From: a virus
Virus record (IMG/VR): IMGVR_UViG_3300045946_000018
Location: 27,272 to 91,271 of that record
Reading direction: 5' to 3' (one strand)
DNA: 64,000 bases
Part shown: positions 7,185 through 61,869 of the stretch, one piece after another
Layout of the letters: every line of letters starts with the position of its first letter
How positions within the stretch are numbered: the first letter of the stretch is position 1
Made by a program: the position numbers and the translations under genes
The notes under the pieces: model-generated
What the model was told of the DNA's origin: nothing
The model's database searches: none
The model's input: the letters and a program-made list of their open reading frames with translations, nothing else

Positions 7185-10100
7185 CTATCTTCTCTCACGT
7201 CTCTCTGAGCGTTCACGTCTCGCTCCTCTTGTTGGCTCCTGCGAATACCAGCCCATCAAACTGTCGTAAACATTCTCACCGCGCTTTTGTGCTCTAGTAA
7301 ACTTACTTATTTGACGGGTGCCAGGTACACCTAAAAGTGTAGCTGTTGGTTCCCACCACGGCGGGCTGAGTGGATCATTTCTGTAGGCGCGTGCAGCATC
7401 TCGTGCTGTTTCTATTGCAGGCCCGGCTATTCCTTTACCGTACCTCATGCCACCTATAATAGGCAGTCTCTCTATTTGTCCTACCGCCAAATCAAGCGCA
7501 AGTTGTGGTAGTGAATGTCTAGCCTGCATTCCTTTCCGCACATCTTCAACAGGATCAGGTAACGCTGGTTGAATGTGCAGCAGTTTGTACAACTCGTTAA
7601 TGATCTGGGTGATGATGAGGAATCCAATTACGTTGCGCATAAATCTCATATTACTGCGTGGTGCTCCAGGCTCTTCCCAACTGCCAGGACCACTGGCTAC
7701 TCCACCTGGAGGTATCTGCCCACCACCTCCACCACCAATCTTACCTTTAGTGAGCACTTCGTCTCGCAGGAAATTGAAGTCACTAATCAAGAACGTCTGG
7801 AATTGCGTGACAAGTTTACCTAATGGGTTACGCTGTATGCCTGCAAGATCGCCTGGCATCGTACTTCCTTGCGTACGCACCACAAGATCGTCTGCGTAGC
7901 GTACAGCATCCTTATGATTGTATCCGACCTTCGGACTCGTGGCGAACTTGTAGCCGGCGTTCCACGTAACAAGTGCAGCTTCCATATCCAGCAATTCAAT
8001 CAGCTTGAATCCTGGCCGGCCAACCATTTGCTGCAGTTCAGCTAAGTTACCTCTGCCTAAGGCACGAAATAATTCTCCTGGTCGTCTACCTACGAATGCA
8101 CTAGTAACTTCATTGTAGGCATCAATGAACTTACGTGAGCTGAGTATCTCACTGTTACGTAATGCGAAATCCTTCTTCTTGCCTAGTGGTAAATCGGCTA
8201 ACATCTCGAATGCTGATCCTAGTGTCTTTGGTATACCAAGTGTTTGGCTAGTATTTACCAATGTAGACAGCTGGATTGTACCTGATCTTATAAGCCCAGA
8301 TAGTGTAGCGTACGCAACGTTCTTGTTGACAGTATTTAGTATCATCCGCTGCGTTGCAGTGAATTGCTTGTTTGTACCGGTTGCAATATAGTCAGTCCAG
8401 TTACGTAGCTCTTCATACAGGCCTGGTTTATTGTCCTTAAGTTGCCACGTCTCTTTACCAGTAACAGGATCAGGTAAGTTAGTTTCAATAAGCTCATGCA
8501 TCTTCGCAATGAATGGACTCATGTGAATGTCCTTCAGCGCCGATTGAGCATAAGTATCAAGTATTTTTAGTGCGTTCATTTCGGCCGTGTAGAATGCATG
8601 CTTGCGTACAATGTACGGGAAGTTTGTTGCTCGATGTTTGATGTACTTTGCGTGCACAGAATCGGAAGTATCGCGGGCAAGATCTACTTTAATACCAAGC
8701 GCATTCAGCACGTTTATTGTGCGCGCGAAGGTTTGGTAGTCATCCACTCGTGCAAGTGGCTCACGTCCAGTTGCAGCACGTACTTCATTTACTCGATTAT
8801 ATAAGTAAGCATAAACACCATCAAGATTTGCCTGCAATCGCCGCTCAGCAGAAGTAAGCGGCTGAGGTGTGACCTTATTATATGTAAGTATTCGTTGCCC
8901 GTCTCCACCTTGACGCGCATAACCATTAGCGCCAATATTCTCTAGTGATTTTGAACTGAAGCCACGACCTAATTCTTCCATATCTGCGTGTAAAGTATTC
9001 AGCTCGGCATTCAGGTTCTTTTGTGCAGTGCGATACGCATAGTAGAGAAATTCTGTACCTGCTGCTTTGTGCTGGCGCAATGGTAGCTTTAAGTTCCACT
9101 CACCACCACCCGGCTTAATGTCACGTGCATTCTGAATGCCTCGCACCTCACTCTGCCACAAAGGTACGTACGTATTGCCACTTGCAACGCGCTGCTTAAC
9201 AACTCTATCTCCTGGAATTACGTTCTCAGGATCGAAGCGCATATTACGCGGATTCGTTGAGTTTGGAGGTTCAGGATTATTGATACCTTCTAGGTACCGC
9301 TCAAACATTGCTACATCTTCAGGACGTGCACCAAACAGAAATTCTCGTACGTTCTTTCCTGCCTTACGCATATCAGCTTGCAATCGCTGAGCGGCCATAC
9401 GTGCTTCACGAGACCAGTTACCTCCTATTGCACCTTCCTCACCAAGCATAGTATTCACATCATTCAGTATATCTATGAACGCCCTACGCTCAGACGTGTC
9501 AATGCCAGCTCTTGCTGATTCGCGCATAGCTTTGTAGTGAGGTATCAAATCAGCCGGCAATTTATCTGTAATATCCACGCCTTGCTCTATAGCACGTAAC
9601 ATTTCTTCTATTTGTTCCGGACCAATAGGTGATGTTTTACTCTCAACGTATGCACCTGCAGCGTCCTTAGAAATCGGGACAGCTCGTAGATCGTCACCAC
9701 TGTTAAGACGAGCATCAGTCCTGACAACGTCCTTAGGAACGAGTTCATAGTTCCTGCCCTTCATTACGTATAAATCAAGGTCATTCTCTGCAGCAACACG
9801 AGTTGCTTCACGTATCAGTTCTTGGCCAGTAAACTCATGTGCACGCTCGATTGGTAGACCAGTAAAATCAGCTTGTGCTTGTAAGGAACGTTTTAATACC
9901 TGCCCTAATTCAGGGCTCGTTCTTCCTCGCTGTATCTCAAGCTCAATATTTGCAAGTGATGTACGGGCGTTCATTCCTCTAGTATCAACGAAAATAGCAT
10001 CAGGCCTGCCTTCTATAGTACGTACTTGTATTGGTGCTGATGATATAAGCTCTGTGTACTTAAAGGGTAATATAGATGCCTTAGCACTGGGTTCTAAATT

Positions 10101-12722
10101 AGTAACGGATTTTATTTCAGTGAAACCAACATTCGTGACTACAGGACGGGTATATGCATAGTAAGCTGTATCCGCCGTACGTCTTGCTACATCTTCAGGC
10201 AGTCCCATACTGATAAGAGTTTGTCTCAGTTGTGATGGTCGCACTCCTTTACTAAAAGCATCCATGACGTCGGCCAGATTCATGCCTATTTGCTGCAGTG
10301 TTTCTTGAATTTCTTCTTTAAATGACTCTACATTCTTACGCACGGCGCGTTCTTCAAAAACGCTTTGTTCTGCTGCGGCACGTGATTCTGGAGTACTTGT
10401 CTCATATATAGGTCTACGAGTGGGCCTATTTATAAGAGGCTCTGTATCTGGCGCTTTCACTACCTTACGTTTACGTTTAGGCTTCTCAATGACAGGAGAT
10501 GTATCTATTACTGGTTCTGCAGGTGCAGGTATTTCTACTTCAGTTCCTGCCGGTGCGTTTTCTAGTACAGCTTCAGTTGCTGCTTGCTGAACAGCTGGCT
10601 TATTGACGGTATAATAACGAGTGTAATTACCTTGCTTTACTTGAGTTATACTACCTTCATTCAGAAGATTTTGAATTGCTTCATTAACTTCACTACGTGC
10701 AAACCCCACTCTATTTACTATAGCTTGTATTGTAGCCCCACCTTCCCGAGATAGAAAATCCCTCACTGCTCCACTAACATCTGAAACTGGCATTTCAGAT
10801 AGCTCAGATAAACTGCTCTCCACAATTCCTCTTTCAGACTTCGCAGCGCGTACTTTTTTAAGTTGTGGTATTAACTCCTGAATTGTTTCCTCATCTACAC
10901 CAAGCTGCCGTAATCCACGCTCTACGCTTTTCGCGTCAGTATTAAGAGCTTCACGTTTCAAGTTTGCTAACGACGTTTTACGATCAGCTGGACTTGTTTC
11001 CTCATTTTGAATTGCTTCTATTGCCGCGAACGCAGGCCCTCTATATTCAGTGCGAGTAGGAGTTATTACTTCTGGAGCCGTAGGCGATACCGCAGCTACT
11101 GCTGGAGTCTCGGGTGAAACTGGTGCTGGTACAGTTTCAGGAGCAACAGTAGCTGCAGCCTCAACACGTGGTGTTTCGATAGGTGCAATTTCACGAGTCG
11201 GTCTTGGTGCCTCAGGCGTAACAGGAGCTAAAGCTGTCTCACCTCGCACTACAACTTCAGGCTGCACTGGCCGCTCAGCAGTCATAGTTGGTGCTGCACG
11301 CTGAGGTTCAGGTGCGCGTTGAGCTTGAGGCTCAGCTGACCTTGGTGCTTCAGGTGTAGGAGCAGCAGGTCTTGCAGCTTCAGGCGTTGGTGTTGGGCGC
11401 GTAGGCTCAGCAGGAGCTCTAGGTGTACCTTGTGGTTTAGGTACGCGGCCTAAGCGCTCTCGTAAATCCGTCATGATACTGCCTCTATTTGGATCAGCTG
11501 CCCATTCATCCGTTACACGATCTAGCTCTGATTTGTACGCACGCAATTCAGCTGGATCATATACTATATCTGCAGCAGCTCCACCACCAGCTGGCCCTTC
11601 ATCCGGCGGCTTAGGTCCTCGTGGTGGCATGCCGACTTCACGATCAGCTTCATCTCTAAACTTTCCACGAGCTTCTTCAAGCGCGTTATTTAGTCGAGGA
11701 TTTTTTGATGCTGCATTCGCAAGATCTTCTGCAGCTGCTGCGGCTTGCGCGTCAGTTGTAGCACGTGACATACGAGTTTTGTATTCAGCAATCTTTGAGC
11801 GTATTTCTGGAGCAGCTTTGCGTACGCCCTGATCTAGCTTGTAGAATAGATAAAGTTCAGTGGCAAAGCTAAGCACTCGAGCTGTATCCTCGTTAAGTAC
11901 GCCTGTTGCCACAAGTGCGCGACCAGGTAGTTCAGCTACATCCTTAATTAAACCGGTTACAGTGCCTACAGCTTTATTTACGTTCTTTGCAATATCTGAG
12001 CGTGGTTCAGGAGTTAGTGACGTAATGCGCTGATCCATTCGGTTGAATATATCACGGTAATGAGTTTTACTTTCGGGCCCACCGGCCATTGGTCCGCCAC
12101 GTGCAACACGTGCAAGTTGAGTATTCAAAATATCGCTAACTGCAGTTGCAGCACCAAATGCAAATGCTCCAGCACCGGCGAGTACATTACCACCAGCTTC
12201 GGCAATATCGCGCACAAAATTCGTGGATCGTTGCAGCGTACCATATAATCCAGGAGAGTATTGTCGCGTCGGCGTTGCTCCTGGTGCTCCAGGCTGAAGG
12301 TCACGTCTGCTAGTATAACGCTGTGACTCTGGAGCTTGAGTAGGAACTGTGCGAATTCCACTAAAACTTCCAGTGCCGGTATATTCGCGTGTTGTATCTG
12401 GTACTAATTTTTCAGCTACCGATCCAATAGCTGAACCAACATCACTTGCTATTTTGCCAGGATCTATACTAGGTAGATAGCCAGAAATTCCTGTGCCTGA
12501 TGGTTCTGCAGGCGGCACGTATTGAGGCGGCAATTGACCAGGGCTGAGCCTCTGCTCAGCGGGTAAGCCGCTATTATAGTTATTTAATAATGCTTCATTC
12601 AAGTCCGGCTTCTTAGGAGCAAGCGGCGTTTTGCCTATTCCTAAGCGTCCAAGTAATTCTTCATTTTCTGGCTCACCTTGAAGAAGGTAGCGTTCTACGT
12701 CAATAGGTGCGACTGTTGACAT
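7185..12722 (-). CDS. Large putative internal virion / DNA-ejection protein (1845 aa)
   Basis: Last gene of structural operon; Pro/Ala-rich linkers; C-terminal ADD.V..TQGS...R...G....QFQTF shared with 54335-59521. Confidence 0.65.
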   Translation of the reverse strand: MSTVAPIDVERYLLQGEPENEELLGRLGIGKTPLAPKKPDLNEALLNNYNSGLPAEQRLSPGQLPPQYVPPAEPSGTGISGYLPSIDPGKIASDVGSAIGSVAEKLVPDTTREYTGTGSFSGIRTVPTQAPESQRYTSRRDLQPGAPGATPTRQYSPGLYGTLQRSTNFVRDIAEAGGNVLAGAGAFAFGAATAVSDILNTQLARVARGGPMAGGPESKTHYRDIFNRMDQRITSLTPEPRSDIAKNVNKAVGTVTGLIKDVAELPGRALVATGVLNEDTARVLSFATELYLFYKLDQGVRKAAPEIRSKIAEYKTRMSRATTDAQAAAAAEDLANAASKNPRLNNALEEARGKFRDEADREVGMPPRGPKPPDEGPAGGGAAADIVYDPAELRAYKSELDRVTDEWAADPNRGSIMTDLRERLGRVPKPQGTPRAPAEPTRPTPTPEAARPAAPTPEAPRSAEPQAQRAPEPQRAAPTMTAERPVQPEVVVRGETALAPVTPEAPRPTREIAPIETPRVEAAATVAPETVPAPVSPETPAVAAVSPTAPEVITPTRTEYRGPAFAAIEAIQNEETSPADRKTSLANLKREALNTDAKSVERGLRQLGVDEETIQELIPQLKKVRAAKSERGIVESSLSELSEMPVSDVSGAVRDFLSREGGATIQAIVNRVGFARSEVNEAIQNLLNEGSITQVKQGNYTRYYTVNKPAVQQAATEAVLENAPAGTEVEIPAPAEPVIDTSPVIEKPKRKRKVVKAPDTEPLINRPTRRPIYETSTPESRAAAEQSVFEERAVRKNVESFKEEIQETLQQIGMNLADVMDAFSKGVRPSQLRQTLISMGLPEDVARRTADTAYYAYTRPVVTNVGFTEIKSVTNLEPSAKASILPFKYTELISSAPIQVRTIEGRPDAIFVDTRGMNARTSLANIELEIQRGRTSPELGQVLKRSLQAQADFTGLPIERAHEFTGQELIREATRVAAENDLDLYVMKGRNYELVPKDVVRTDARLNSGDDLRAVPISKDAAGAYVESKTSPIGPEQIEEMLRAIEQGVDITDKLPADLIPHYKAMRESARAGIDTSERRAFIDILNDVNTMLGEEGAIGGNWSREARMAAQRLQADMRKAGKNVREFLFGARPEDVAMFERYLEGINNPEPPNSTNPRNMRFDPENVIPGDRVVKQRVASGNTYVPLWQSEVRGIQNARDIKPGGGEWNLKLPLRQHKAAGTEFLYYAYRTAQKNLNAELNTLHADMEELGRGFSSKSLENIGANGYARQGGDGQRILTYNKVTPQPLTSAERRLQANLDGVYAYLYNRVNEVRAATGREPLARVDDYQTFARTINVLNALGIKVDLARDTSDSVHAKYIKHRATNFPYIVRKHAFYTAEMNALKILDTYAQSALKDIHMSPFIAKMHELIETNLPDPVTGKETWQLKDNKPGLYEELRNWTDYIATGTNKQFTATQRMILNTVNKNVAYATLSGLIRSGTIQLSTLVNTSQTLGIPKTLGSAFEMLADLPLGKKKDFALRNSEILSSRKFIDAYNEVTSAFVGRRPGELFRALGRGNLAELQQMVGRPGFKLIELLDMEAALVTWNAGYKFATSPKVGYNHKDAVRYADDLVVRTQGSTMPGDLAGIQRNPLGKLVTQFQTFLISDFNFLRDEVLTKGKIGGGGGGQIPPGGVASGPGSWEEPGAPRSNMRFMRNVIGFLIITQIINELYKLLHIQPALPDPVEDVRKGMQARHSLPQLALDLAVGQIERLPIIGGMRYGKGIAGPAIETARDAARAYRNDPLSPPWWEPTATLLGVPGTRQISKFTRAQKRGENVYDSLMGWYSQEPTRGARRERSERRERR

Positions 12723-12971: not shown

Positions 12972-14000
12972 TTACTCTTTGGGCCTGAGTTTCCAGGGTA
13001 TCGGCTGCTTTAAGCTTGGATAAAATACTTGCTCAAGGTATTGTTGCACGTTCATTGCGCCACTAGGGTAATTCTGAGCTGCGTCATAAACCTCTTGGGC
13101 CGTATAGCGATGACCATCTACAGTAGGCAAATCTATCTTCTTCATTCGAGTACCTGAATAGATGCGGCCAGGATTATCCTCAAAGATATACACGTACGGC
13201 TGTTTGCTTGTCGCATGAAACAGCTCAGCTTCAGGTGCTAATTCACTCTCATCGTACGAGTTCTGTAGTGCATAGCCACCAGGTCTCTTCGAGCGTAGAT
13301 TCTGTTCTGCATCTGTTGCTACTTTCATCTCAGTGCGAGCATCCGTGCGCGCTTTAGCTATTTTCTCTGCACGCTCTTTCTCGAGCTGCATCATCTTCTG
13401 TATATTCTCGTTACGCTCTTGAGCAAGTGTCATTCCTTTGGCTGAGAACTCCTGACCACCGATCTTCAGCTTTACGTATTCATCATTCTGTTTATCTAGC
13501 AGTGCAGCCTCTCTCGGATACAGTTGACGGATGCGCTCAGCATTGGCATTGCTGGCATTAACAGCTGCCATACTTTGCTCAATATTAGCTCGTATGTTCT
13601 GCTTCTCTAAACCGAGCAGCTCAGTAACGCGGTTTGATTGTGCTTGATACAGGCCTGTCTGTGCACGCTCCTGTGCAACGCGTTCTGGCAACAGTGTTTC
13701 GGTACTGATTCGCTGAGCACGACTCGCACCAGCTGCTTCACGTGACTGGTCAATATCCGCAAGCATCTTAGCGGCAATGTGAGGCTCTTCTGCACGTAAC
13801 CGTGCTGCCTGCGCTTTATTCAAATCACCTGAAGTTTCACGGTACGCAATCTCACTTTGTACATTACGTGCCTGTATAATGTCCTGCACGCTGCGTAGTC
13901 GCAGTGCTTCTCGTTCTGTGTCGAGTCGGCCCATAGCTGCAACCTGTTCTGGATTAAGCCCCGCAAGACTTCCACTTTCAAATCCTCCGGGGCTTAGTAG
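12972..14000 (-). CDS. Putative ejection protein, C-terminal part, probably reached by -1 frameshift from 13994-14554
   Basis: Frame open from the slippery site to ATG 13934; AGLNPEQ upstream of the ATG is conserved as AGLTPEQ in B. Confidence 0.7.
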   Translation of the reverse strand, partial: LLSPGGFESGSLAGLNPEQVAAMGRLDTEREALRLRSVQDIIQARNVQSEIAYRETSGDLNKAQAARLRAEEPHIAAKMLADIDQSREAAGASRAQRISTETLLPERVAQERAQTGLYQAQSNRVTELLGLEKQNIRANIEQSMAAVNASNANAERIRQLYPREAALLDKQNDEYVKLKIGGQEFSAKGMTLAQERNENIQKMMQLEKERAEKIAKARTDARTEMKVATDAEQNLRSKRPGGYALQNSYDESELAPEAELFHATSKQPYVYIFEDNPGRIYSGTRMKKIDLPTVDGHRYTAQEVYDAAQNYPSGAMNVQQYLEQVFYPSLKQPIPWKLRPKE

Positions 14001-14006
14001 AAAGGG
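13955..14006 (-). promoter_or_regulatory. -1 programmed ribosomal frameshift signal
   Basis: C CCT TTC (14006-14000) in frame 0 then 9-bp stem taagccccg/cggggctta with inner extension. Confidence 0.8.
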
Positions 14007-14554
14007 GCAATATCTAGTATGCTGGGATCACGTCTAGCTGCAGCAGTTCTTATTGGTGCTGGTGCATTAGTTACGGGAACTGGAGCCGTAGTAGCTGGAG
14101 TAATCACGGGTGCTGTCTGTGTACGTGCAGGTGGCTGAGCTGGTGCTACGTTAGTCGGTCTGGTTGCTGCAATGTCACGAAGCGTATTTGAGAATGCACC
14201 GTACTCCGGCGTGCTCGTAATATTTCGTGGCTCAGGCAAGTTGAGGTCGAATGTGTACGAGCCAGATGGCGTTGCCTTAACGCTGTTCAGACCAGGACGG
14301 TCTGGCTTCGTGATGCCACCGTGCAAGTCAATAAGCTGTTTAATTTGTGCTGATCGCGCCGCGTCGCGTTTCTCGATGGCAGATTGAGCGGCTTTACTGC
14401 TAATCATATTTGCAGCGGCGGTACCAATTACTCCACCTGCACCCTCAGGGTCCATTTGCCTACCCATGTTCGCGAGCAGTAACTGGAAGTTGGGATCACT
14501 TAACATACCGCTAAAACTCCACGGTTGCTGTGTGGCTGCTGAACCTTCTGCCAT
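13994..14554 (-). CDS. Putative internal virion protein (short frameshift product)
   Basis: MDPEGAGGVIG matches MDPRGAGGILG in 60760-61869; both end D..PF. Confidence 0.7.
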   Translation of the reverse strand: MAEGSAATQQPWSFSGMLSDPNFQLLLANMGRQMDPEGAGGVIGTAAANMISSKAAQSAIEKRDAARSAQIKQLIDLHGGITKPDRPGLNSVKATPSGSYTFDLNLPEPRNITSTPEYGAFSNTLRDIAATRPTNVAPAQPPARTQTAPVITPATTAPVPVTNAPAPIRTAAARRDPSILDIAPFY

Positions 14555-14617
14555 GATAAATTCCTTTGGTTAAAGTTTAACCACAACGCACCGACGCGCA
14601 GTATAGCGCGCCACTGA

Positions 14618-15908: not shown

Positions 15909-16136
15909 TTATTCCTTTCGGCGACAATCACGCACTAGTTCAACTTGCTTATCTAGGCACGTAATTAATTTCTCGTAAAAAGTACGGGATATTTCCTGCG
16001 AGCGATTAAGTGCTCCAATAAGCCACCAAACAACTATAGTACCCATTAGTAATAGTGTTAGCGATACTATAGGCCCGCCCTCACGTAGGACAGGAAGTAT
16101 AATACTTAACCATCCACGTGCTCGTTCTGGCTGCAT
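15909..16136 (-). CDS. Small membrane protein, holin-like
   Basis: Hydrophobic helix GPIVSLTLLLMGTIVVWWLIGAL; near-identical to 63398-63625. Confidence 0.55.
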   Translation of the reverse strand: MQPERARGWLSIILPVLREGGPIVSLTLLLMGTIVVWWLIGALNRSQEISRTFYEKLITCLDKQVELVRDCRRKE

Positions 16137-16390
16137 GACTTTAGTCTCTGTTGATAAGAACGCATAACTGCACGACAATTATCGCAGCGCGCATACGAGC
16201 CAGATACTTTAGCAATGGTGCATTGCACGCATAACTTAGCTCGTTTTAATTGCTTGTAACGTTTACGCTGATAAATTCGGTTATCCATTACGCAACGTTC
16301 GCACTTTCGATTTGAGAACAGCGATTTTCTACCACAATTAGCGCAGCGTTTCTGCCGTATATAAATAGCACGTTCGGCTGCTCTAGCCAT
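16106..16390 (-). CDS. Cys-rich basic protein (four CxxC, two putative Zn fingers)
   Basis: CANC, CERC, CVQC, CDNC; A-specific. Confidence 0.6.
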   Translation of the reverse strand: MARAAERAIYIRQKRCANCGRKSLFSNRKCERCVMDNRIYQRKRYKQLKRAKLCVQCTIAKVSGSYARCDNCRAVMRSYQQRLKSCSQNEHVDG

Positions 16391-16392
16391 AG

Positions 16393-17784
16393 TTAGTTTA
16401 CCTTACTGCAGATCATAGTAATTACACCTTTAGCGCCTAATTCGCCTGCACAATTAAGAATTAAATCTCCAGATGGTGGCGGTTCTGGTAAAGGTGTAGT
16501 ACCAAAAACATATGCGCCTAAATCAGGTGGCTGCGTGTAGGGCTGTCCTTGTACGTCACTTTCTACAGCAACAGTTATTCCAGCTCGTATCGCTGGCGAA
16601 TTTGATTTAAGTGTCAAATCTCCACTTGCAGAGTCGGTGTATATATTCTCTACAGGTGCAATTAGCGTAATACCAGTGTTACCACTTTTATCTGACATGT
16701 TGTGGTGATTTTTATCCGGGTTTGGTGATACGCCTGCAGAATTGCCCAGCGATAAATAAGCATTTTTTTGTTCAGTAATCAGATTATTTACTACTGTAAA
16801 TCCACTGCCATCTCCTGAAGTTGTCCAGATACCAGTAGGATCATCGTTCCATCCAGCTTCTTTCCATCCGTGAATTGTATTGTTAGCAATTAATCCGGAA
16901 CCTGATAGTGTAATTCCTGAACCGTTGTGTTCAAGTAGGTTTGATGCTACTGTACAATCTGATCCTGCACAGCGGATACCAACACTGCTATTGTGACGTA
17001 CTATATTACGCTCTATCTTTATTCGCGAAATTCCTCCGCCCTCACACGATACGTGAATGCCATAGTAAGAGCAATATTCTACGCGATTATCACTAATAAT
17101 TTGATCCGTACCGCACACGTACATTCCGTGCGGACAGCCACTTGGCGTAGGCTTATTGTCGCTATGGGGGCATTCTTTAAGTCCAGTGTGGTGAATATAG
17201 TTATGCGTAATAGTTAAGTATTTACTAGTACTGCCGCCCTTAATTTGACCATCGGCTAATTCATTTCGCGTTATAGTAACGTGCTGTGCATTGCCGATGT
17301 ATACACCACCAACAGAACCAGCATTACTATGACGTACTATTCTCAAACCCTCGACGTGAATAAACCTCGCGTAATCTAGTAACGTAATTGCCGAACCACC
17401 ACCAGGAAATTGTTTACCTGCTGGTGAAAGAACAGCATTTCCAGCCGCAATTAACTTAGTAGGCTGATCCGGATCTATACCATTAACTATTGGATAACAG
17501 GGTTGTTGCACAGCAGAATCACCACTAGAGCAGGCACGGCTATTAGATTGCTGCGAGATTAGCAATTCGTTGTACGTACCCGGGCCGATAATTAGCGTAT
17601 CTCCAGAAGATAAGCATTGTAAGCCAGCATTAATTGAAGCACGTGATGTAGCTGGATTTTTCGCTTGCTCGCATGTATGACTATCATTACCTCGTGGTTT
17701 ACGTGTTGCCTGTTGACTTACGTAATACGTTTCGTAGGCATATACTTCTGCTGATAAAAACAGTAGTAGTATAATGCTTATCAT
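16393..17784 (-). CDS. Right-handed parallel beta-helix protein with N-terminal signal peptide
   Basis: MISIILLLFLSAEVYA leader; repeated I..N.....GI strands; DLTLKSNSPAI.AG and PDLGAY tail typical of beta-helix proteins. Confidence 0.75.
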   Translation of the reverse strand: MISIILLLFLSAEVYAYETYYVSQQATRKPRGNDSHTCEQAKNPATSRASINAGLQCLSSGDTLIIGPGTYNELLISQQSNSRACSSGDSAVQQPCYPIVNGIDPDQPTKLIAAGNAVLSPAGKQFPGGGSAITLLDYARFIHVEGLRIVRHSNAGSVGGVYIGNAQHVTITRNELADGQIKGGSTSKYLTITHNYIHHTGLKECPHSDNKPTPSGCPHGMYVCGTDQIISDNRVEYCSYYGIHVSCEGGGISRIKIERNIVRHNSSVGIRCAGSDCTVASNLLEHNGSGITLSGSGLIANNTIHGWKEAGWNDDPTGIWTTSGDGSGFTVVNNLITEQKNAYLSLGNSAGVSPNPDKNHHNMSDKSGNTGITLIAPVENIYTDSASGDLTLKSNSPAIRAGITVAVESDVQGQPYTQPPDLGAYVFGTTPLPEPPPSGDLILNCAGELGAKGVITMICSKVN

Positions 17785-18644
17785 ACGCGCGCTCCCTCAA
17801 GCACTTTAATACGTGCCGACAATTCTTGTAGTGCACCTACAAGCCACGGTACGAGTTTACTAAAATCAACTTGCTGTGGCTTGATACTGCCATCCTCATT
17901 GAGCGCATCAGGTTCGCCTGTAACAGCTTCTGGAACAACTTGCTGTAATTCATGCGCGGCAAATCCATGCCCTTCTTCACCGGTAGATTTCCATAAAAAG
18001 CGAATTGGATTGAGCGATATTATACGCTCCAGGGCGCCGGTGAGTGGGGCGATGTCGGATTTGAGGCGGGCATCACTGGAGGTGGCGTAGGTGGTGCTCG
18101 TGGCATTGGCGATAATGTAACCTACTACTGCCGCAGCGGTATTGCGAAAGACAATGGACGAGTTGCCAGACGTGTCGTCGCCGTAATTCTGAATTATCAA
18201 GCCATGACTGGTAGGCTTGTCAAACAGCATAAATACCTTCGCATTATTGCTGACATCTGTGGTGCCAAGCACAATGTTTCCCTGGATATAGTTTGCGGCG
18301 CTGCCCTGCATAAAGAGTTGCCAGCGACCGCTGCCCACCGAGAGATTCGAGTTAAACGCCGTCAGCGGACTACCTGCCGTATCGCTGACAGTATGCTGCC
18401 GCGCGTTCACGTTTTGCTGGCCGGTGATGTCCCCGCTGGCGATGAGCGTATTCAACGTCGCACTCCCCCCCGTAATCGCCACCGCATTCGCATGCTGCTC
18501 GGCCATAGTGCCCAAGCCTAAATTATTACGTGCTGTCGCAGCTGTCGTTGCGCCAGTACCACCACCACTAATACTCAGCGGCATACTTTGCCCGTTCCAC
18601 AACGTCGCATTGAGCACACTTGTTGGATATACGTCAACAGCCAT
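17781..18644 (-). CDS. Short tail fibre with C-terminal peptidase S74 intramolecular chaperone
   Basis: AGGAG SD before MAVDVYP; GGTGATTAATARNNLGLG; TSSDARLK, GFAAHELQQVVPEAV. Confidence 0.8.
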   Translation of the reverse strand: MAVDVYPTSVLNATLWNGQSMPLSISGGGTGATTAATARNNLGLGTMAEQHANAVAITGGSATLNTLIASGDITGQQNVNARQHTVSDTAGSPLTAFNSNLSVGSGRWQLFMQGSAANYIQGNIVLGTTDVSNNAKVFMLFDKPTSHGLIIQNYGDDTSGNSSIVFRNTAAAVVGYIIANATSTTYATSSDARLKSDIAPLTGALERIISLNPIRFLWKSTGEEGHGFAAHELQQVVPEAVTGEPDALNEDGSIKPQQVDFSKLVPWLVGALQELSARIKVLEGARV

Positions 18645-18810
18645 CTTTGCACTCCTGCTGCACTTTCTTGAGTGCGGTAATTCCACCATCAATTCTGTGC
18701 AGCGTGATTTCGAGATACGCAACACGCTCACGTAAACGCAGCAATTCATTTTCACCAGCAGTAAATTCGTCCTGGAGACGGCTAATTTCTTGTGTAATTA
18801 ATTCAAGCAT
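18634..18810 (-). CDS. 58-aa coiled-coil protein (not in ORF track)
   Basis: Manual translation MLELITQEISRLQDEF...QQECKDGC; overlaps both neighbours. Confidence 0.55.
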   Translation of the reverse strand: MLELITQEISRLQDEFTAGENELLRLRERVAYLEITLHRIDGGITALKKVQQECKDGC

Positions 18811-21382
18811 GCTGGAGTTCCTCTATCATCGTGAGCATTTCTTGCATGCTAGCAATAACGTAAGGCAGCAGTTTTGAGCTATCCATTTGTTGCGGCATGA
18901 TATTACCGCTTTCGTCTACAGCATCAGGTTCACCAGTGATGGCTTCGGGAACCAGGTGCTGAATCTCGTTAGCAACAAATCCCACGCCGCGTGAGTTATC
19001 ACTACGCCAGCGCCAAGTACGCGCTGGAATCTGGCGCAGCACGTCCAGGGCGCCGGTGATGGGGGTAATGGCGGTTTTGAGGCGAATATCGCTGGAGGTG
19101 CTGTACGCGGTCGCTGTGGCAGTCGTACTGATGGAGCCCACTTCCGCTCCAGAGGCATTGGTGAAAAACAGAGCTTTGGCGTTGGTATCTGTCGATGGCT
19201 GCACCTGGATACCGTACTGCACCCCGCTGGCGGTATACGCCACCGTGATAGCCCGAGCGCTGAGTGGACTGGCCTGCATGCCAACAGTTCCGGCAAAATA
19301 ATTCGGCGCGGTGCCCTCCATATAACAGTTATAACGATTTGCTCCAGCGGCAATCAACCCACGGAAAGCGTAGCATTGATTGGATATAGGAATAGTCGGA
19401 TTCAGAACTTGAAAACCACGGTATCCGCCACAAGTACTGCCACCTGTTAGGGTCGGATCTTCTATAGTAATTCCAGCTATCGTTACATTCGATCCACTTC
19501 CTGAGTGCGGATATACGCGCTGTGCTGTCCAAGCCAAAGGATTATCTGAGTTGCCCTGGTTACTACTAAGCACCAACTGTGCCAAGCCACTAGTTGCACC
19601 GCCAAGCGCGACGCTTCCGCCCGTAATCGCCACCGCATTGGCGTGTTGCGTGGCCATGGTGCCGAGCGCATCGCCAAACTCCGTCGCATTCGCCGCCGCA
19701 TTGACACGCAGGACTTTGCTGGCGTTACCAGTGTAAGTATCAGGGGTATCGCTTAAAGAGAGCAGCGTGGGATAACCAAACGAGGCGCCAACGTAGGCGG
19801 TGTAGGTCACGGCCATGCCATCGTTATAGACGTGTCCAGTTTTTGTATCGCTAGCATTTCCGCCATCTCGAATGAGATTAAATTTTACCGTATCTCCAAC
19901 TTGAACATTTCCAGACGCTAATACAACAGTGTCTTCGTAAATAAGGTTATCCGAGGCAGTAAAATTGTATTGAATCGGTCCTAACACCCCTAAAGGGGAA
20001 GCGTTATTCCGGTGCCGGAATCCTTCGCAGTACATTGTCGCGGTTCCTGTCACACTACTACGACGCTTAAAATGAAACGTTACATCACCTCCAGCATAAT
20101 TTGATGGGACTTGCCAATAACATCCATGCTGAATGGGGAGCGCATCAACCCACCAATACGCATCTGCTGCTGCCCCGCTGCCTGAGTTTAATGCTATCCA
20201 AGACAGCGATGTTGTTATCGTCGTCGTCGTGCTATTACTCGGCGCGATAAATTCCAACGCCGTCGCGCCAGGATTGACGCGGACCATACTGTTGGCATTA
20301 CTGGCGTAGCTATTGGGCGTATCACTTAAGCCAAGAAAGTCCGTCACGCCGCCTGGTGGAATCGTCCACGCGCCAGTGCCATCTAAATACTGCGTAGCCG
20401 CGCCAGAGAGTTTTGGTAAAAAGCCATGCTGCAAGGTGCTGGCATTGTCCGCAGTTAAATCACTGAGTTGAATATGCGTTTCCGTGACTGAACCACTTAG
20501 TAAATTAGCTTTCATCTGTCCAGCAGTAGCTTTGTCCCATGCAATTGTGGCGGTATCAGTAAGCACTCTTTCAGCGGTAAGTATTGCGTTAGTTGAACCC
20601 GTTATATATTCAGCATTGTTAGGCGCGTCCCCACTAGGAGTTACCCATGTTCCAGCACCAGTCAGAACCTGCGTCATATTGCCACTTAGTTTAGGCAAAA
20701 ATCCATGCTTAGTTGTATCCGCATTATCAGCAGTACTATCACTTAACTGAATATGCGTTTCAGTTACTGAGCCAGTTAGCAAGTTTGCGGTAATTGAAGG
20801 TCCGGCGTCATTATAAGTAAAATCAATAGTAGAACTATCCACTAATATTAATCCCACCGCATCTTGTGCCTGCTCGTCGGTATATCCAGTACCGCCGCCA
20901 CCGCCACCAGAACCAAACTGTATTATAGCGGCGAAAGCATTGGATATCATCCCAGTACCGCCAGTAACATAAGTTACCGCAAATAAGTACCAACTAGTGT
21001 TGTTTACAATGCTATCAATTGTATAACGTGCCCAAATTGCAGAGTCAACCTTTTCCTGTATGTACAGACTATCTCCAACTTGAATTGCACCTAAAACGTT
21101 ACCAGCATTCACGCCACCATCTGTCGTTATAGATATAGCGAAGGACGTTGTAAGTGCAAAACTTGCTGCATTTATACGAAAATTACCTGCACCAGGATCA
21201 ACCATTATATCTATGTTGCGGTAAACCCATTCACCTGTTAACGAACCTGGACTAGCAATAGTTAATGTATTTGCGGTATCATCGTAATCAATACTAATGT
21301 TAACTCCAGCTTGGAGCAATTCAGCCACTTGGTCATCTATACGTTCACCAGAAACCGGCGTAGGTTGGACTACTATTTGCAT
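18803..21382 (-). CDS. Mosaic tail fibre with C-terminal peptidase S74 chaperone (may span the A/B junction)
   Basis: Repeated HGFLPKLSG and LSDTP modules; TSSDIRLK, GFVANEIQHLVPEAI. Confidence 0.8.
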   Translation of the reverse strand: MQIVVQPTPVSGERIDDQVAELLQAGVNISIDYDDTANTLTIASPGSLTGEWVYRNIDIMVDPGAGNFRINAASFALTTSFAISITTDGGVNAGNVLGAIQVGDSLYIQEKVDSAIWARYTIDSIVNNTSWYLFAVTYVTGGTGMISNAFAAIIQFGSGGGGGGTGYTDEQAQDAVGLILVDSSTIDFTYNDAGPSITANLLTGSVTETHIQLSDSTADNADTTKHGFLPKLSGNMTQVLTGAGTWVTPSGDAPNNAEYITGSTNAILTAERVLTDTATIAWDKATAGQMKANLLSGSVTETHIQLSDLTADNASTLQHGFLPKLSGAATQYLDGTGAWTIPPGGVTDFLGLSDTPNSYASNANSMVRVNPGATALEFIAPSNSTTTTITTSLSWIALNSGSGAAADAYWWVDALPIQHGCYWQVPSNYAGGDVTFHFKRRSSVTGTATMYCEGFRHRNNASPLGVLGPIQYNFTASDNLIYEDTVVLASGNVQVGDTVKFNLIRDGGNASDTKTGHVYNDGMAVTYTAYVGASFGYPTLLSLSDTPDTYTGNASKVLRVNAAANATEFGDALGTMATQHANAVAITGGSVALGGATSGLAQLVLSSNQGNSDNPLAWTAQRVYPHSGSGSNVTIAGITIEDPTLTGGSTCGGYRGFQVLNPTIPISNQCYAFRGLIAAGANRYNCYMEGTAPNYFAGTVGMQASPLSARAITVAYTASGVQYGIQVQPSTDTNAKALFFTNASGAEVGSISTTATATAYSTSSDIRLKTAITPITGALDVLRQIPARTWRWRSDNSRGVGFVANEIQHLVPEAITGEPDAVDESGNIMPQQMDSSKLLPYVIASMQEMLTMIEELQHA
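19044..19170 (+). repeat. 127-bp exact direct repeat, copy 1 (copy 2 at 63874-64000)
   Basis: Base-by-base comparison; offset 44,830. Confidence 0.95.
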
Positions 21383-21409
21383 AACTTTATTCCAGTGTTA
21401 AAATTTTAA

Positions 21410-22288
21410 TTACATAAAACTTCCCGCTAAGCCTAGCACAGCACCAGCCGCAGCTCCATATGGACCGCCTATACTAGCACCTGCCGCTGCGCCACTTAAC
21501 ACACCACCCAAACTTTTCTGTAACTGTGAAGGCTCATTACGTCCTACTGTCGCTGCAGCACCATTTAATGCCCCGGTAAATGCCCGTGCATATTCGAACA
21601 ATCCTAAATCCCAAAGTCTATGTTTAGATTCATATTCCAATTGTCGTGCGTCGTTATCAAATTTGGTTGAATAATACGATTTAAATAGTTCATTATATAC
21701 CCCAACTACACTTGCTGACCAATCTAGATGTTTAAACCAAATTTTGTACGACAAATCTAATGAAGCAATACGCAAATTTCCAGCAAATTCATTCACCGAT
21801 TTTACATGCGCGTCATAAATGATGCTTTTCCCTATTACAAATGTAGTTGCCTGTACAGCATTAATATCTCGCATACCAATAAGAAATTGTGGCAGCACCC
21901 GCGAGTCAATTTCATCTCGTAGCAGTGCTGAGTGCGCGGCTATACTGTTAGCTACTTCTGGTCCGTGTACTACATCTTCATATACATCTCCCCATAACAT
22001 ATGTAAATCTAATCCACCCATAAATTTACCAAACATATCCCATAACGAAGGAAAGTCCTCTATTCTATAAAATTGTGAAGGCTCGCCTGCAATATTACCA
22101 AAAAATCCACGCTCGGGCGTAATTCTCTCAAATACGTTACCAGTTGCATAAGGCGAATTAAAAAAAGCTTGGTTAAGCGCCTGATTCATAGTAAACACTG
22201 GTGGTACAACATCTACACCAGTAAGCATCCGATGAGTCTTTTCTAAATATGGCGCATATCGTACAGTCATTTCACCACCACCGCCCAT
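21410..22288 (-). CDS. Putative internal virion / pilot-type protein
   Basis: Gly/Ala-rich hydrophobic C-terminus (GAAAGASIGGPYGAAAGAVLG); position after tail genes. Confidence 0.55.
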   Translation of the reverse strand: MGGGGEMTVRYAPYLEKTHRMLTGVDVVPPVFTMNQALNQAFFNSPYATGNVFERITPERGFFGNIAGEPSQFYRIEDFPSLWDMFGKFMGGLDLHMLWGDVYEDVVHGPEVANSIAAHSALLRDEIDSRVLPQFLIGMRDINAVQATTFVIGKSIIYDAHVKSVNEFAGNLRIASLDLSYKIWFKHLDWSASVVGVYNELFKSYYSTKFDNDARQLEYESKHRLWDLGLFEYARAFTGALNGAAATVGRNEPSQLQKSLGGVLSGAAAGASIGGPYGAAAGAVLGLAGSFM

Positions 22289-32816: not shown

Positions 32817-33039
32817 AATCCATCTCCATTGCTTCAACCATAACTTCCGGTAAACGAATAAATCTATTAACCGCTTCAGCATTGCCTTGAAGTCGTCTAA
32901 TTATTTCCACATTACTTTCTATTTCTAATTGATTGCGTATGTCCTCCAACCATTGGTGCAATTCATCGCGTAAATCTCGCCAAATTGCGGATATAATGAA
33001 GTCGCGCATCTCCCTCGGAGTCGCGTTGTACTCACTCAC
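32797..33039 (-). CDS. Small conserved protein downstream of portal
   Basis: IIRRLQGNAEAV pattern; typical post-portal position. Confidence 0.65.
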   Translation of the reverse strand: MSEYNATPREMRDFIISAIWRDLRDELHQWLEDIRNQLEIESNVEIIRRLQGNAEAVNRFIRLPEVMVEAMEMDYGRREL

Positions 33040-42049: not shown

Positions 42050-42089
42050 TCAGCGAATTAAAATTTAACCACTGGAGGTAAATTTCGCA

Positions 42090-42227
42090 ATGTGGGACCG
42101 CGTGGTAATAGTTGTAGCATTCCTTTGTTTAGCGCTAATAAGTGTGCAAACTATAATTATGGGTAAAATTTTAGGAGATATAACAGCACTAATAGCCGCA
42201 TGTTGTAAGAACATAATTCAACCGTAG
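42090..42227 (+). CDS. Single-pass membrane microprotein (45 aa)
   Basis: GGAGG SD; paralogous to 42576 and 43390. Confidence 0.6.
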   Translation: MWDRVVIVVAFLCLALISVQTIIMGKILGDITALIAACCKNIIQP

Positions 42228-42313
42228 CCCCACACTCCGAATTTAAATTACGCTGCGCGGGCTACGCTCGAATTTTCCAAATTAAAATTTAACCACTGGA
42301 AAGGTTAAACTAA

Positions 42314-42553
42314 ATGAGTCGCGGACCTTGTATGTGCGGTGATTATATGTGCCCTAGCTGCGGACCAGCCCAAGGTTATAACCCAACGTATGAGTTAATA
42401 TTTGAATGGTTGGCCAATAAAGCGCTGAATAAAAAGTACGATATTAGCGAGGAATATGATATAGAAGCAGCAATTGACGCTGTGATGAGATTACTGGAGG
42501 ATGAACAAGAAGTTGTTGCGGCAATGATCAAAGCAGTCAAATCAGCGAATTAA
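42314..42553 (+). CDS. Hypothetical protein with CxC..CxxC N-terminus
   Basis: PCMCGDYMCPSCG. Confidence 0.65.
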   Translation: MSRGPCMCGDYMCPSCGPAQGYNPTYELIFEWLANKALNKKYDISEEYDIEAAIDAVMRLLEDEQEVVAAMIKAVKSAN

Positions 42554-42575
42554 AATTTAAACAATGGAGAAGCTT

Positions 42576-42698
42576 ATGCAAATTGATCGCGTAACCCTAG
42601 CGATAATAATAATAGGGTTTATTGTTTTAGCAGGTGAAACGTTATTACTAGGAAAAATGTTAGTTGAGATAACGGATTTAATTCGCCGTACTCATTAA
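42576..42698 (+). CDS. Single-pass membrane microprotein (40 aa)
   Basis: GGAG SD; DRV.....IIGF....ET..LGKML.EIT.LI. Confidence 0.6.
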   Translation: MQIDRVTLAIIIIGFIVLAGETLLLGKMLVEITDLIRRTH

Positions 42699-42714
42699 TG
42701 AAAGGAATTTCCAA

Positions 42715-42867
42715 ATGCCCATCTGTGTAATTTGCGGAGAACGTTTAGACGACAACAACTATTTATCAGTGGAGTTAGCTAACCAAAGCCAAATTGTGGT
42801 TTGTGTATGGTGTGCTTTACTTGTAGTTGAGCACCTCGAACAATTTAAAGCACATAAAGCAAACTAA
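42715..42867 (+). CDS. CxxC...CxxC microprotein (50 aa)
   Basis: AAGGA SD; CVIC, VCVWC. Confidence 0.6.
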   Translation: MPICVICGERLDDNNYLSVELANQSQIVVCVWCALLVVEHLEQFKAHKAN

Positions 42868-42978
42868 CTTGCTGCGAGGCACAGCGAATTAACTTTATCG
42901 TCGCCCCGGCCAACTTTACCGAAGTTTAGCCCGGGCGACGCTCGGATTTAAAATTTAACCACTGGAGGAAATTTCCCA

Positions 42979-43320
42979 ATGTCTAAACCAAATTTTACCG
43001 TTCAGGAGATTCGTGACGCATACCCAACACCAGTTGCATTTAAGCACGCAGACGATTGCAATTACTGTGTTGGAGGCGCGTTAGTAATGTTCCTGGCTAA
43101 CATTATTCCAGCAGATCAGCACGAAGAAGTCCGCTTTCCTAGTGAAGCGTCAATTCGAGCTGCGGTTGAGAAGTATAATTACAATATTCCTTACGAAATT
43201 GTTGAGTACTGTGTGAGTAAATTGGTATATAGGAATGATTTAGGCGATTTTGATATCGCATGGGCTGAGGTAGATTGTTTGTTAAAATATCCTCGCGCAG
43301 ACGCGCCTAACACCCTTTAA
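42979..43320 (+). CDS. Hypothetical protein
   Basis: Repeat site with GGAGG SD; YCVGGAL, NDLGDF. Confidence 0.7.
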   Translation: MSKPNFTVQEIRDAYPTPVAFKHADDCNYCVGGALVMFLANIIPADQHEEVRFPSEASIRAAVEKYNYNIPYEIVEYCVSKLVYRNDLGDFDIAWAEVDCLLKYPRADAPNTL

Positions 43321-43389
43321 TTTTAAGCCGAGGCCCGCCGCTCGGATTAATATTTCCGGGTTGCGGGCTACGATCGAGAGGTGCAGATT

Positions 43390-59845: not shown

Positions 59846-60763
59846 CTAATCGCGTAATTCCTTCGGCGCTGGTTGCTTGGCCATATCTTCCCAAACATGG
59901 AGTAAAAACTCCTGAAAACTTCTCCCGCCACGCAATTGCCTATTATTAAACATAATCATTAGTTCGCGTGCGGTTAACTGCTCTATCGCGTCAGTACCGG
60001 GCTTCTTTAGTTTAGGCAACGGAATTTTTACAGCAGTACCAGGTGCGCGTCCAGCAAATGGATTATACGCATTTGGATTAAATACGCTACGCCCACCCAC
60101 TTTTGGTAAGTACGCGTAATCCGCCCTTGAGCGAGTGTTAAATATATTTGCCTGTGATGTTACATCTTCCCCCTCTTTAGGATTTTGTATTATACCCTCC
60201 GCTTTAGCCGCCTGATCTTCATCGCGCTGTATATCTTCACGCTCTTGTCGCTGTATTTGATTGCGCTGGAATTCGGTTAATCCACCACTCTCACCACGCG
60301 ACCCCAGAGAACGAATTAGCGCTTCGAGATACTGCGTCGAAGGTACTTTGAATTTACGCCCTTGATCGTCTTCTAGTTCAATAGTGGCTTTACCTTGCTC
60401 AATATCTTGGCGTAATTTATTTATCTCCTCCACTAGTTTCTCTTTAGGCAAGGTGCCCAACATTTTAGCCAGTTCAACTCTTTGCCGAGATTCAGCCGCT
60501 TGAGCATTACGCAGATCAGTTTCAGCTTGTTGTGCTTCAGCAGCACCAGGCATAAGCTGGCGTAACCTCTCGGCCTGCTGCTCGTCAAGCAATCCCGCAT
60601 CTTCGAGCCTATTAATCTGTGCCATATTAACGCCAGCATCAAACAAACTACCCACGCTCCTCTGGCGTAATTGTTCTAACGCTATATCACGCGAAGCAAC
60701 TTGGTTAATTTGTTCTGGTGTAAGCCCGGCTACAGATACGCTTCCTGCACCCGGGCCAGCTAA
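59846..60763 (-). CDS. Putative ejection protein, C-terminal part reached by -1 frameshift
   Basis: 36 open codons between slippery site and the track's GTG start; AGLTPEQ conserved. Confidence 0.7.
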   Translation of the reverse strand, partial: LAGPGAGSVSVAGLTPEQINQVASRDIALEQLRQRSVGSLFDAGVNMAQINRLEDAGLLDEQQAERLRQLMPGAAEAQQAETDLRNAQAAESRQRVELAKMLGTLPKEKLVEEINKLRQDIEQGKATIELEDDQGRKFKVPSTQYLEALIRSLGSRGESGGLTEFQRNQIQRQEREDIQRDEDQAAKAEGIIQNPKEGEDVTSQANIFNTRSRADYAYLPKVGGRSVFNPNAYNPFAGRAPGTAVKIPLPKLKKPGTDAIEQLTARELMIMFNNRQLRGGRSFQEFLLHVWEDMAKQPAPKELRD

Positions 60764-60769
60764 AAAGGG
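60723..60769 (-). promoter_or_regulatory. -1 programmed ribosomal frameshift signal
   Basis: C CCT TTT (60769-60763) then TAG; stem gcccgg/ccgggc plus tgcagg/tctgta starting about 6 nt downstream. Confidence 0.8.
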
Positions 60770-61869
60770 ATTACGTCTCGTAAATCTGGAATAGTTTGCG
60801 AGCGTCTGCGCGGTGTTGGCAACAAAGCTTGCGCGTTTGGCGGTAACACCATTCCACCTCCACCACTAATTACCGGCTGTTCTACTGGACGCTCTGCACG
60901 TTGAGGTACTTGGCGTTGTGGTGGGTTAGATAATGCAGTTATAGCTTGTTGCATTGGTATGCGTGAGGGTATTGGTGATTGGCTTGGGCCTAATGGTGCA
61001 TCACCGCCAGGGAAAAGTTCGCGCTGTGCAGTTACAACTTCGGGCTCTAACATTTGCGGAACATCTGTAGGCGCCTGTAGCGATTCAGTCTGCATAGCTA
61101 TACGTCGAATAGGCGCGCCAGTTGGACTAACTTCAGTAGTAGGTCCCTCAGTACCATAATATCTTTGATTATTAGGCCGCGGTGGTAAAGGTGCTGGCTC
61201 TATTCCAGGTACAGGTAGTGGAATTGGTACGGGTGGTGTAGGCTGAGTTGGTACGTACATTTGTGGTGTAGGTTGTACACCTCGAGTTTGTCCGCGAAAC
61301 TGCGCTACACGCTCTGGATCTGCATTAGTTATTGTTCTTCCAGCAGGCATATCAGGTTCCATTGGTGGCATAATTCTATTTCGCATCACATCAGGTTCGC
61401 CAGTGCTAACTGGCCTTCCTTGCATATCAGTTTGTTTAATTGGTTGATCTGGATCATTCGCCAAATTTCCTTTAATTGTCACGCTACGATCTGGATTTAC
61501 TTGTGCCGAAGTTGGCCCCATTTCACCTTTTGGACCCATTGGTCCCCAGCCTCGTAGTATTCTAAATAACTCTTCGTTACGCGCACTGTAATTTTTCATT
61601 TGTTCGTTATAAGCGCGCTCAGCCGCTTGAGCATTACTGTAGTTTATCGTAGCCCGGCCCAATATTCCGCCTGCGCCACGCGGATCCATTTCAGCACCAA
61701 TTCCAGCTATCATTTGAATCAAATATGGATTAATCCGTCCTTCTGGTGTTAGCAACCAATCTGGGTATGAACGTTGCTCATAAAAATATGGCGTAGTATC
61801 GGGAGTTGGTTGGGGTGGTGGCGCGGTAGGAATAAGTTGACCTTCTGGATTTACTGTAACTAATGCCAT
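60760..61869 (-). CDS. Putative internal virion protein, Pro-rich (short frameshift product)
   Basis: Homologue of 13994-14554. Confidence 0.7.
   Translation of the reverse strand: MALVTVNPEGQLIPTAPPPQPTPDTTPYFYEQRSYPDWLLTPEGRINPYLIQMIAGIGAEMDPRGAGGILGRATINYSNAQAAERAYNEQMKNYSARNEELFRILRGWGPMGPKGEMGPTSAQVNPDRSVTIKGNLANDPDQPIKQTDMQGRPVSTGEPDVMRNRIMPPMEPDMPAGRTITNADPERVAQFRGQTRGVQPTPQMYVPTQPTPPVPIPLPVPGIEPAPLPPRPNNQRYYGTEGPTTEVSPTGAPIRRIAMQTESLQAPTDVPQMLEPEVVTAQRELFPGGDAPLGPSQSPIPSRIPMQQAITALSNPPQRQVPQRAERPVEQPVISGGGGMVLPPNAQALLPTPRRRSQTIPDLRDVIPF

Follow-up and report, generated by a model that had tools for sequence, protein, structure and literature searches.

A putative −1 ribosomal frameshift cassette joins two late genes in a family of uncultured podophages

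The 64,000-nucleotide (nt) stretch of viral DNA analyzed here (the window; positions 27,272 to 91,271 of IMG/VR record IMGVR_UViG_3300045946_000018) holds two related, strongly diverged podophage genomes or segments: phage A (1-38300) and phage B (38800-64000). In both, a plus-strand early block converges on a minus-strand late block, and each carries one candidate frameshift cassette. The cassette of phage A lies where two late open reading frames (ORFs), ORF1-A and ORF2-A, meet (Table 1). ORF1-A ends in the codons GCC CCT TTC TAC TAA, giving its protein the C-terminus ...DIAPFY, and within these codons C CCT TTC forms an in-register X XXY YYZ heptamer. This is the only in-register motif of its kind in ORF1-A, and it is the sole or nearly sole one in each other ORF1 of the nine loci compared below. 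Read from 14006 in the −1 frame, the sequence continues as PFLLSPGGFESGSLAGLNPEQVAAM, with no stop before the called ORF2-A. A ribosome that shifted frame would thus make a fusion of 185 + 342 = 527 amino acids (aa). The segment that links the slip site to ORF2-A lacks a start codon and would therefore be translatable only after a −1 shift, and no GGAG-like Shine-Dalgarno sequence lies upstream of the ATG at 13934. We read ORF2-A as the C-terminal portion of the predicted 527-aa fusion rather than as a separate protein.

Behind the heptamer lies a putative stimulatory hairpin. Its lower stem of 9 base pairs (bp) joins TAAGCCCCG (13996-13988) to CGGGGCTTA (13963-13955) and includes the conserved core GCCCCG/CGGGGC. 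The 24 nt between these arms form a second helix of 7 bp (13986-13980 with 13971-13965) under an apical loop of 8 nt; thus, the element is a two-part hairpin. It begins 3 nt past the heptamer, or 6 nt past it if measured to the conserved G-C core. The original prediction, made from the letters of this window, had named a slippery heptamer at the end of ORF1, a 9-bp perfect stem, an open −1 frame into ORF2, an ATG without a clear Shine-Dalgarno sequence, and products of 186 and about 527 aa; each of these is found at the locus as it was described.

The arrangement recurs in phage B, whose pair proteins are 24-31% identical to those of phage A. Its heptamer, C CCT TTT, is followed after 5 nt by a hairpin, and its start-less −1 stretch reads LAGPGAGSVSVAGLTPEQ..., running into ORF2-B. 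The best-conserved block in the alignment of the two phages is the stretch 5′ of both called ORF2 starts.

Table 1. Coordinates of the gene pairs, their putative recoding signals, and two further genes in the window.
Feature	Coordinates	Strand	Description
ORF1-A	13994..14554	minus	186 aa; zero-frame product, the short form
ORF2-A as called	12972..13934	minus	320 aa
Slippery heptamer C CCT TTC, phage A	14000..14006	minus	X XXY YYZ register
Trans-frame linking segment, phage A	13935..14000	minus	22 ORF2-frame codons (LLSPGGFESGSLAGLNPEQVAA), without a start codon
Putative stimulatory hairpin, phage A	13955..13996	minus	fold and covariation
ORF1-B	60760..61869	minus	369 aa; ends ATC CCT TTT TAG
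Heptamer C CCT TTT, phage B	60763..60769	minus	zero-frame stop TAG immediately 3′
Hairpin, phage B	60723..60757	minus	lower stem GGCCCGG/CCGGGCU and an upper 6-bp stem
ORF2-B frame from slip site	59846..60762	minus	called GTG start 60655, 38 codons past heptamer
1845-aa protein gene	7185..12722	minus	downstream of the pair; last of late operon
Portal gene	33039-34970	minus	match to the gp5 portal structure of Vibrio cholerae podophage VP1 (PDB 8zkk) at E 1e-70

Scans of IMG/VR and JGI metagenomes provided seven further loci (L001, L002, L003, L004, L008, L010, and L014) on contigs of 1.7-48 kb, the complete-looking ones being 42-48 kb, and we compared these with phages A and B as nine distinct loci. 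Their ORF2 proteins are 28-84% identical. All nine carry the heptamer C CCT TTY at the 3′ end of ORF1, in register with the zero frame. A survey of homologous gene pairs had been proposed as a check with the original prediction, and it returned no homologue among the nine loci that lacks the heptamer or the −1 register. The zero-frame stop of ORF1 follows the heptamer within 0-2 codons in 8 of the 9 loci. The frame change at L001 is confined to 17 nt bounded by the last −1-frame stop and the zero-frame stop, an interval that contains the heptamer.

Two features of the heptamer are invariant at synonymous positions. The codon 5′ of it ends in C in all nine loci, while encoding Ala, Ile, Phe, Leu, or Ser, and its Pro codon is always CCT. 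C-ending codons make up 7-37% of the codons for those amino acids in these genes and CCT makes up 37% of Pro codons; therefore, the joint probability of both positions being invariant is about 1e-12, given the genes' own codon usage. Elsewhere in ORF2, four-fold third positions at identical residues agree at only 0.3-0.5 in most pairs, which is near saturation, and the nine loci can be regarded as effectively independent at silent sites. The last base of the heptamer is C or T throughout (9/9), which satisfies the H_HH.U_UU.Y rule. Motifs of this form are among the most efficient −1 motifs in Escherichia coli, because the A-site tRNA re-pairs cognately when UUY becomes UUU (Sharma et al., PMC4066793).

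The hairpin is conserved alongside the heptamer. A two-part hairpin folds 5-7 nt past the heptamer in every lineage (9/9 loci), and a 7-bp core helix is common to all nine aligned elements. Two base pairs of this helix covary, by changes that are synonymous or compensated. One, formed by the wobble positions of a Pro and an Ala codon, occurs as C-G and as A-U in four loci each and as G-C in the remaining one. The second changes from G-C to A-U in two loci, where a Ser-to-Asn change is compensated by a synonymous change in a Leu codon. The covariation score was reached by none of 500 column shuffles, and pairing, at 82% in register, falls to 19-60% when the partner is slid by one to three columns.

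There is no conserved start for ORF2. The first ATG, GTG, or TTG in its frame lies 24, 38, 39, 24, 3, 24, 67, 21, and 79 codons past the heptamer in the nine loci, the largest distances (67 and 79 codons, L008 and L014) falling within conserved coding sequence. The starts that gene callers assign to ORF2 homologues are likewise scattered across the alignment. Over 65 start-less codons, L008 and L014 agree at 55 residues, of which 23 are encoded by synonymous codons, and differ by 10 replacements; the other two frames are interrupted by 5-7 stops. In the linking segment, phage A and L002 share 22 of 22 residues despite seven synonymous differences. Judged by these comparisons, the start-less segment is protein-coding and under purifying selection in the ORF2 frame.

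These observations bear on whether any recoding takes place. ORF2 could instead be translated independently from the ATG at 13934 or its equivalents, with the heptamer and stem being coincidental or otherwise used; gene callers do annotate ORF2 separately in most contigs, and phage A does have an ATG. Such starts, however, fall at very different alignment positions, and in L008 and L014 the first one comes after 67 and 79 codons of conserved coding sequence. Purifying selection on the start-less segment in the ORF2 frame only, the lack of a Shine-Dalgarno sequence before 13934, and the synonymous invariance of the heptamer also argue against independent initiation, which we consider very improbable.

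Termination-reinitiation at or near the ORF1 stop, possibly with a non-canonical start, could also drive ORF2. It would fit the position of that stop, 0-2 codons past the heptamer in 8 of 9 loci, and the ATGA overlap in L003. A canonical start near the stop is nevertheless present in only one of the nine loci. Furthermore, the zero-frame stop of L010 lies 15 codons past the heptamer, yet ORF2-frame conservation there still starts at the heptamer. Coupling would also leave unexplained both the selection on C CCU UUY and the existence of fused homologues with the exact trans-frame junction (see below), and we consider it very unlikely.

Natural fusions of the two reading frames exist. A protein search found three in-frame proteins of 512-514 aa (P0004, P0005, and P0008) that are 60-65% identical to the phage A sequence, the P0008 cluster being present on three contigs. 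Their junction, DI(A/S)PFLLSPGGFE, is exactly the one predicted for the trans-frame product.

We also searched 1.84 billion cluster representatives with a profile of the whole fusion, which matched 443 representatives at E ≤1e-3 and 198 at E ≤1e-10. Among the best 150 of these 443 matches, 87 have the ORF1 N-terminal motif and 70 are ORF1-like representatives of ≤260 aa. The residues PF occur within the last 22 residues of 61 of these 70 short proteins; in 27 of the 70, PF plus 0-2 residues is the C-terminus. Five longer, phage-B-like ORF1s in the same set of 150 likewise end in PF plus 0-2 residues. Short tails beyond PF, such as ...ALLG, are the zero-frame reading of a conserved ORF2-frame motif, SLAGL(S/T/N)PEQ, as in L010.

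About fifteen in-frame fusions occur among the distant members, and two of these were examined at the DNA level. The fused P0022 (L023 3104-3200) serves as a control: it has CCT CTT where shifted lineages have CCC TTT, and thus has no slippery site; its hairpin is still strong (−33 kcal/mol), with the 3′ arm displaced by two codons. The fused P0026 (L022 3089-3190) retains C CCT TTA in register, followed by a hairpin at the usual distance. The −1 frame of L022 stops after four codons, so that a shift there would yield a short form, as in dnaX and the reverse of the situation in the window. This reversed shift is a lead from a single example.

In line with the original prediction of a −1 frameshift, ORF1 and ORF2 very probably form a canonical cassette for −1 programmed ribosomal frameshifting. 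The nine heptamers, the covarying hairpin, the absence of a conserved ORF2 start, the coding linker, and the fused homologues all point to it. Sequence comparison shows the signals themselves, how they are conserved, and that the start-less segment is coding.

Under this reading, ribosomes translating ORF1-A would meet C CCU UUC with the P site occupied by tRNA-Pro and the A site by tRNA-Phe, while the GC-rich two-part hairpin a few nt downstream would resist unwinding. Some ribosomes would slip back one base (CCU to CCC, and UUC to UUU) and continue in the ORF2 frame; the trans-frame protein would thereby be made, in some proportion. Unshifted ribosomes would terminate two codons on and release the 186-aa short form, whereas shifted ribosomes would complete the 527-aa fusion with the junction ...DIAPF-LLSPGG..., and ORF2 would have no independent expression. 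A tryptic peptide of the fusion across this junction would span ...DIAPFLLSPGGFESGSLAGLNPEQVAAMGR. Both forms would share the N-terminal domain, and the long form would add a long helix and a C-terminal globular domain. Conceivably, the ratio of short to long product is set by the shift.

The genomic context of the pair is that of a podophage. On its 5′ side are genes for a large terminase, for a portal and a major capsid protein that are both SU10-type, for tail fibers bearing S74 chaperone domains, and for a beta-helix protein, as well as a BppU_N gene. The phage of PDB 8zkk, whose portal matches that of the window, is identified as V. cholerae podophage VP1 (PMC13730344). The nearest capsids come from Desulfofustis phage LS06-2018-MD01 (48.6%) and from LUZ24-like and other podophages. 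Judged by sequence, the portal and capsid genes mark a podophage, and a scan of the ten largest late-gene products recognized no tail tube, sheath, major tail, or tape-measure protein. The gene pair sits 3′ of the tail fiber and beta-helix genes and is followed by the gene for a 1845-aa protein, the last of the late operon.

The 1845-aa protein has a weak match to phrog_9880 and a tblastn match to a region of a 2057-aa “coil containing protein” of Vibrio podophage 1.021.A; it is a probable large internal virion protein. The 2057-aa gene of 1.021.A is preceded by genes for 188 and 543 aa, after adaptor and head-closure genes, and these sizes are near the predicted 186 and 527 aa. The syntenic place in the Desulfofustis phage (L015, OP947158.1) is occupied by a single 487-aa ORF (20663-22126) followed by a 1577-aa ORF (15927-20660), both annotated as hypothetical. 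A comparison of the A6 profile with the 487-aa protein in hhalign detected a weak N-terminal likeness (probability 13%).

Two side observations were made in the window. The motif TTAAANTTTAA is present in 10 copies, where shuffling predicts 0.36, at 14570-14580, 28189, 29144, 37346, 42058-43556, and 50379. It often lies just 5′ of gene starts, one copy preceding the ORF1-A ATG by 16 nt, and may be a phage promoter or regulatory site. In addition, an 851-aa late protein (24320-26875, minus strand) has an RCC1-like beta-propeller (PF25390 and PF13540) and, by its position and size, is probably a tail nozzle.

Programmed frameshifts are textbook features of phage tail chaperones, some capsids, and some tail tube proteins, where they fix the ratios of two forms. 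One of these, the tail assembly chaperone frameshift of lambda (gpG/gpGT), was reportedly characterized by Xu, Hendrix, and Duda in 2004. The present pair resembles lambda G/GT (review PMC5009743) in that a −1 slip is predicted on an X XXY YYZ heptamer close to where a small late gene ends, in that the short and the C-terminally extended product would have a common N-terminal domain, in its position directly 5′ of a very long protein, and in its conservation across phages with little sequence similarity.

The pair might accordingly be suspected to encode tail assembly chaperones, with the 1845-aa protein as the tape measure of a long-tailed phage. The very long helical protein directly downstream would agree with this, and 1 of 150 family members has a marginal match to Phage_TAC_16 (E 0.026). 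However, the portal has its match in podophage VP1 (E 1e-70), both portal and capsid are of SU10 type, the nearest capsids are those of podophage groups, and neither a tape measure nor a tail tube, sheath, or major tail protein is recognized among the late products scanned. Gene order differs as well: the pair follows the fiber and beta-helix genes, where the lambda pair precedes the fibers, and the giant gene closes the operon. The products (186 and 527 aa) are far larger than G and GT, neither ORF is related to Phage_TAC families or has any Pfam match, the heptamer is C CCU UUY where lambda has G GGA AAG, and relatives fuse the ORF1 domain to a lytic transglycosylase. Because portal and capsid genes mark a podophage, we reject the tail chaperone reading, which we regard as highly unlikely.

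Least likely of all is a change at the RNA or DNA level in the C4T3 run, either transcriptional slippage or a sequencing or assembly indel, that would make the true gene one ORF: the close in-frame relatives P0004, P0005, and P0008 and the short homopolymer pair at the site would suit it, but the same −1 arrangement recurs in nine loci assembled independently from different samples, on which ground we reject sequencing error, and the runs of 3-6 T and 3-4 C are far shorter than those known to be prone to slippage, for which about 9 or more A or T are required, while neither process predicts a conserved, covarying hairpin.

Several points nonetheless weigh against the frameshift itself. The case is a purely comparative one. 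P0004, P0005, and P0008 are known here as proteins alone, and homopolymer error in their contigs may be responsible for their fused state. PF is retained in several in-frame fused relatives, so its conservation may be partly at the protein level. The minimum free energy z-scores of the hairpin are modest (−0.3 to −2.8). In L003, an ATG three codons past the heptamer overlaps the zero-frame TGA, which makes coupled reinitiation possible in that single lineage. Finally, no cultured relative with the gene pair was found: tblastn searches of 50,697 phage records with ORF1, ORF2, and a distant fused member gave no match, nor did the A6 profile search of six related annotated phage genomes. A scan of GTDB genomes likewise detected no relative, and so no host or prophage lead.

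Other known frameshifts share parts of the proposed design. The T7 10A/10B shift, like the one proposed here, is a −1 frameshift in a structural gene of a podophage and yields two forms that are alike in their N-terminal part. There, however, the product is the major capsid protein with a short extension, whereas here it would be a putative internal virion protein with an extension of 342 aa, larger than the zero-frame product itself. E. coli dnaX (tau/gamma) also combines a heptamer with a downstream stem-loop to give two forms, but its shift truncates where that of the window would extend, and its heptamer is A AAA AAG. The L003/L008/L014 clade also has an AGGAG 6 nt 5′ of the heptamer (L003 2215-2232, L008 245-262, and L014 2983-3000), within conserved DIRS codons; it is absent from phages A and B. 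By analogy, this AGGAG may be an upstream stimulator like the dnaX element. The NS1′ frameshift of West Nile and Japanese encephalitis viruses uses the identical heptamer C CCU UUU with a downstream structure, although these are eukaryotic RNA viruses with a pseudoknot stimulator and unrelated proteins.

The original prediction had called a frameshift in this context undescribed; our full-text literature search, of incomplete coverage and including the PRFect paper and a 2016 recoding review, found none in podophage ejection or core genes. The proposed mechanism is canonical; the gene family and its context are new and widespread in uncultured phages.

What the pair does can be approached through structure prediction. 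In an AlphaFold model of a fused homologue (mean predicted local distance difference test, pLDDT, 78.5), a helical N-terminal domain with a beta-hairpin is followed by a disordered Pro/Thr-rich linker running up to the PF junction. Together with the family census, the model gives ORF1-A a helical, Gly-rich N-terminal domain and a disordered Pro/Thr/Ala-rich linker leading to ...DIAPFY. The ORF2 region begins with one long helix (about 155 residues in the modeled homologue) and continues through a small hairpin and further helices to a confident C-terminal alpha/beta domain; the C-terminal 170 residues modeled separately reach a pLDDT of 89.2. Foldseek searches of PDB and BFVD and a wide VIA-align search returned generic coiled-coil matches (Z about 8) or none at Z ≥5, and a profile search of PDB sequences gave nothing meaningful. 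Pfam and PHROGs assigned neither ORF1 nor ORF2 to a family. An Atlas lead (0.82) to the P22 gp7-like family PF16928 is unconfirmed, as Pfam searches of 150 members gave no PF16928 match.

Lytic transglycosylases are a hallmark of envelope-penetrating virion proteins. Two distant relatives, P0145 (719 aa) and P0086 (583 aa), combine an ORF1-like N-terminal domain with an SLT lytic transglycosylase domain in one protein (Pfam E 1e-10 to 5e-12). This recalls T7 gp16, which has a lytic transglycosylase domain of its own. Like the ejection or core proteins of podophages (gp14/gp15/gp16 of T7 and gp7/gp20/gp16 of P22), the pair and the 1845-aa protein are encoded side by side in the late operon by a small, a medium, and a giant gene, and 1.021.A has a syntenic set of 188, 543, and 2057 aa whose giant protein is weakly homologous. 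On the other hand, the T7 and P22 systems use separate genes, with no frameshift described in the searched literature, and we found no similarity in sequence or fold between the pair and a solved ejection protein. An internal or ejection protein role is perhaps slightly favored, on the grounds of podophage context, gene order, the 1845-aa protein, and the transglycosylase-fused relatives; as no structure match went beyond generic coiled coils, this is a role that we infer by reasoning. Both forms would then be internal virion (ejection) proteins that act with the 1845-aa protein.

A broader proposal, which is tentative and rather less likely to be right than wrong, is that the cassette is a family-wide device that fixes the stoichiometry of short and long forms of a podophage ejection component, with the default toggled among lineages. 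The shared N-terminal domain would anchor both forms, and only the helix and C-terminal domain of the long form could reach the 1845-aa protein. A shift would lead to the long form in most lineages. In L022-like fused lineages, the zero frame would give the long form and a shift could give the short one.

The VP1 portal structure provides a structural template for this uncultured phage group. The family itself is a natural data set for the co-evolution of slippery site and stimulator under overlapping coding, comprising split, fused, and possibly reversed forms. Were the cassette conserved throughout this family of podophage virion genes (443 cluster representatives), annotation would be corrected in hundreds of metagenomic phage genomes that now carry arbitrary internal ORF2 starts, a new class of phage recoding would be added, and there would be a handle on how short-tailed phages control the composition of their internal or ejection protein complex. 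Under the broader proposal, this class would be widespread among short-tailed phages, with a reach comparable to that of G/GT.

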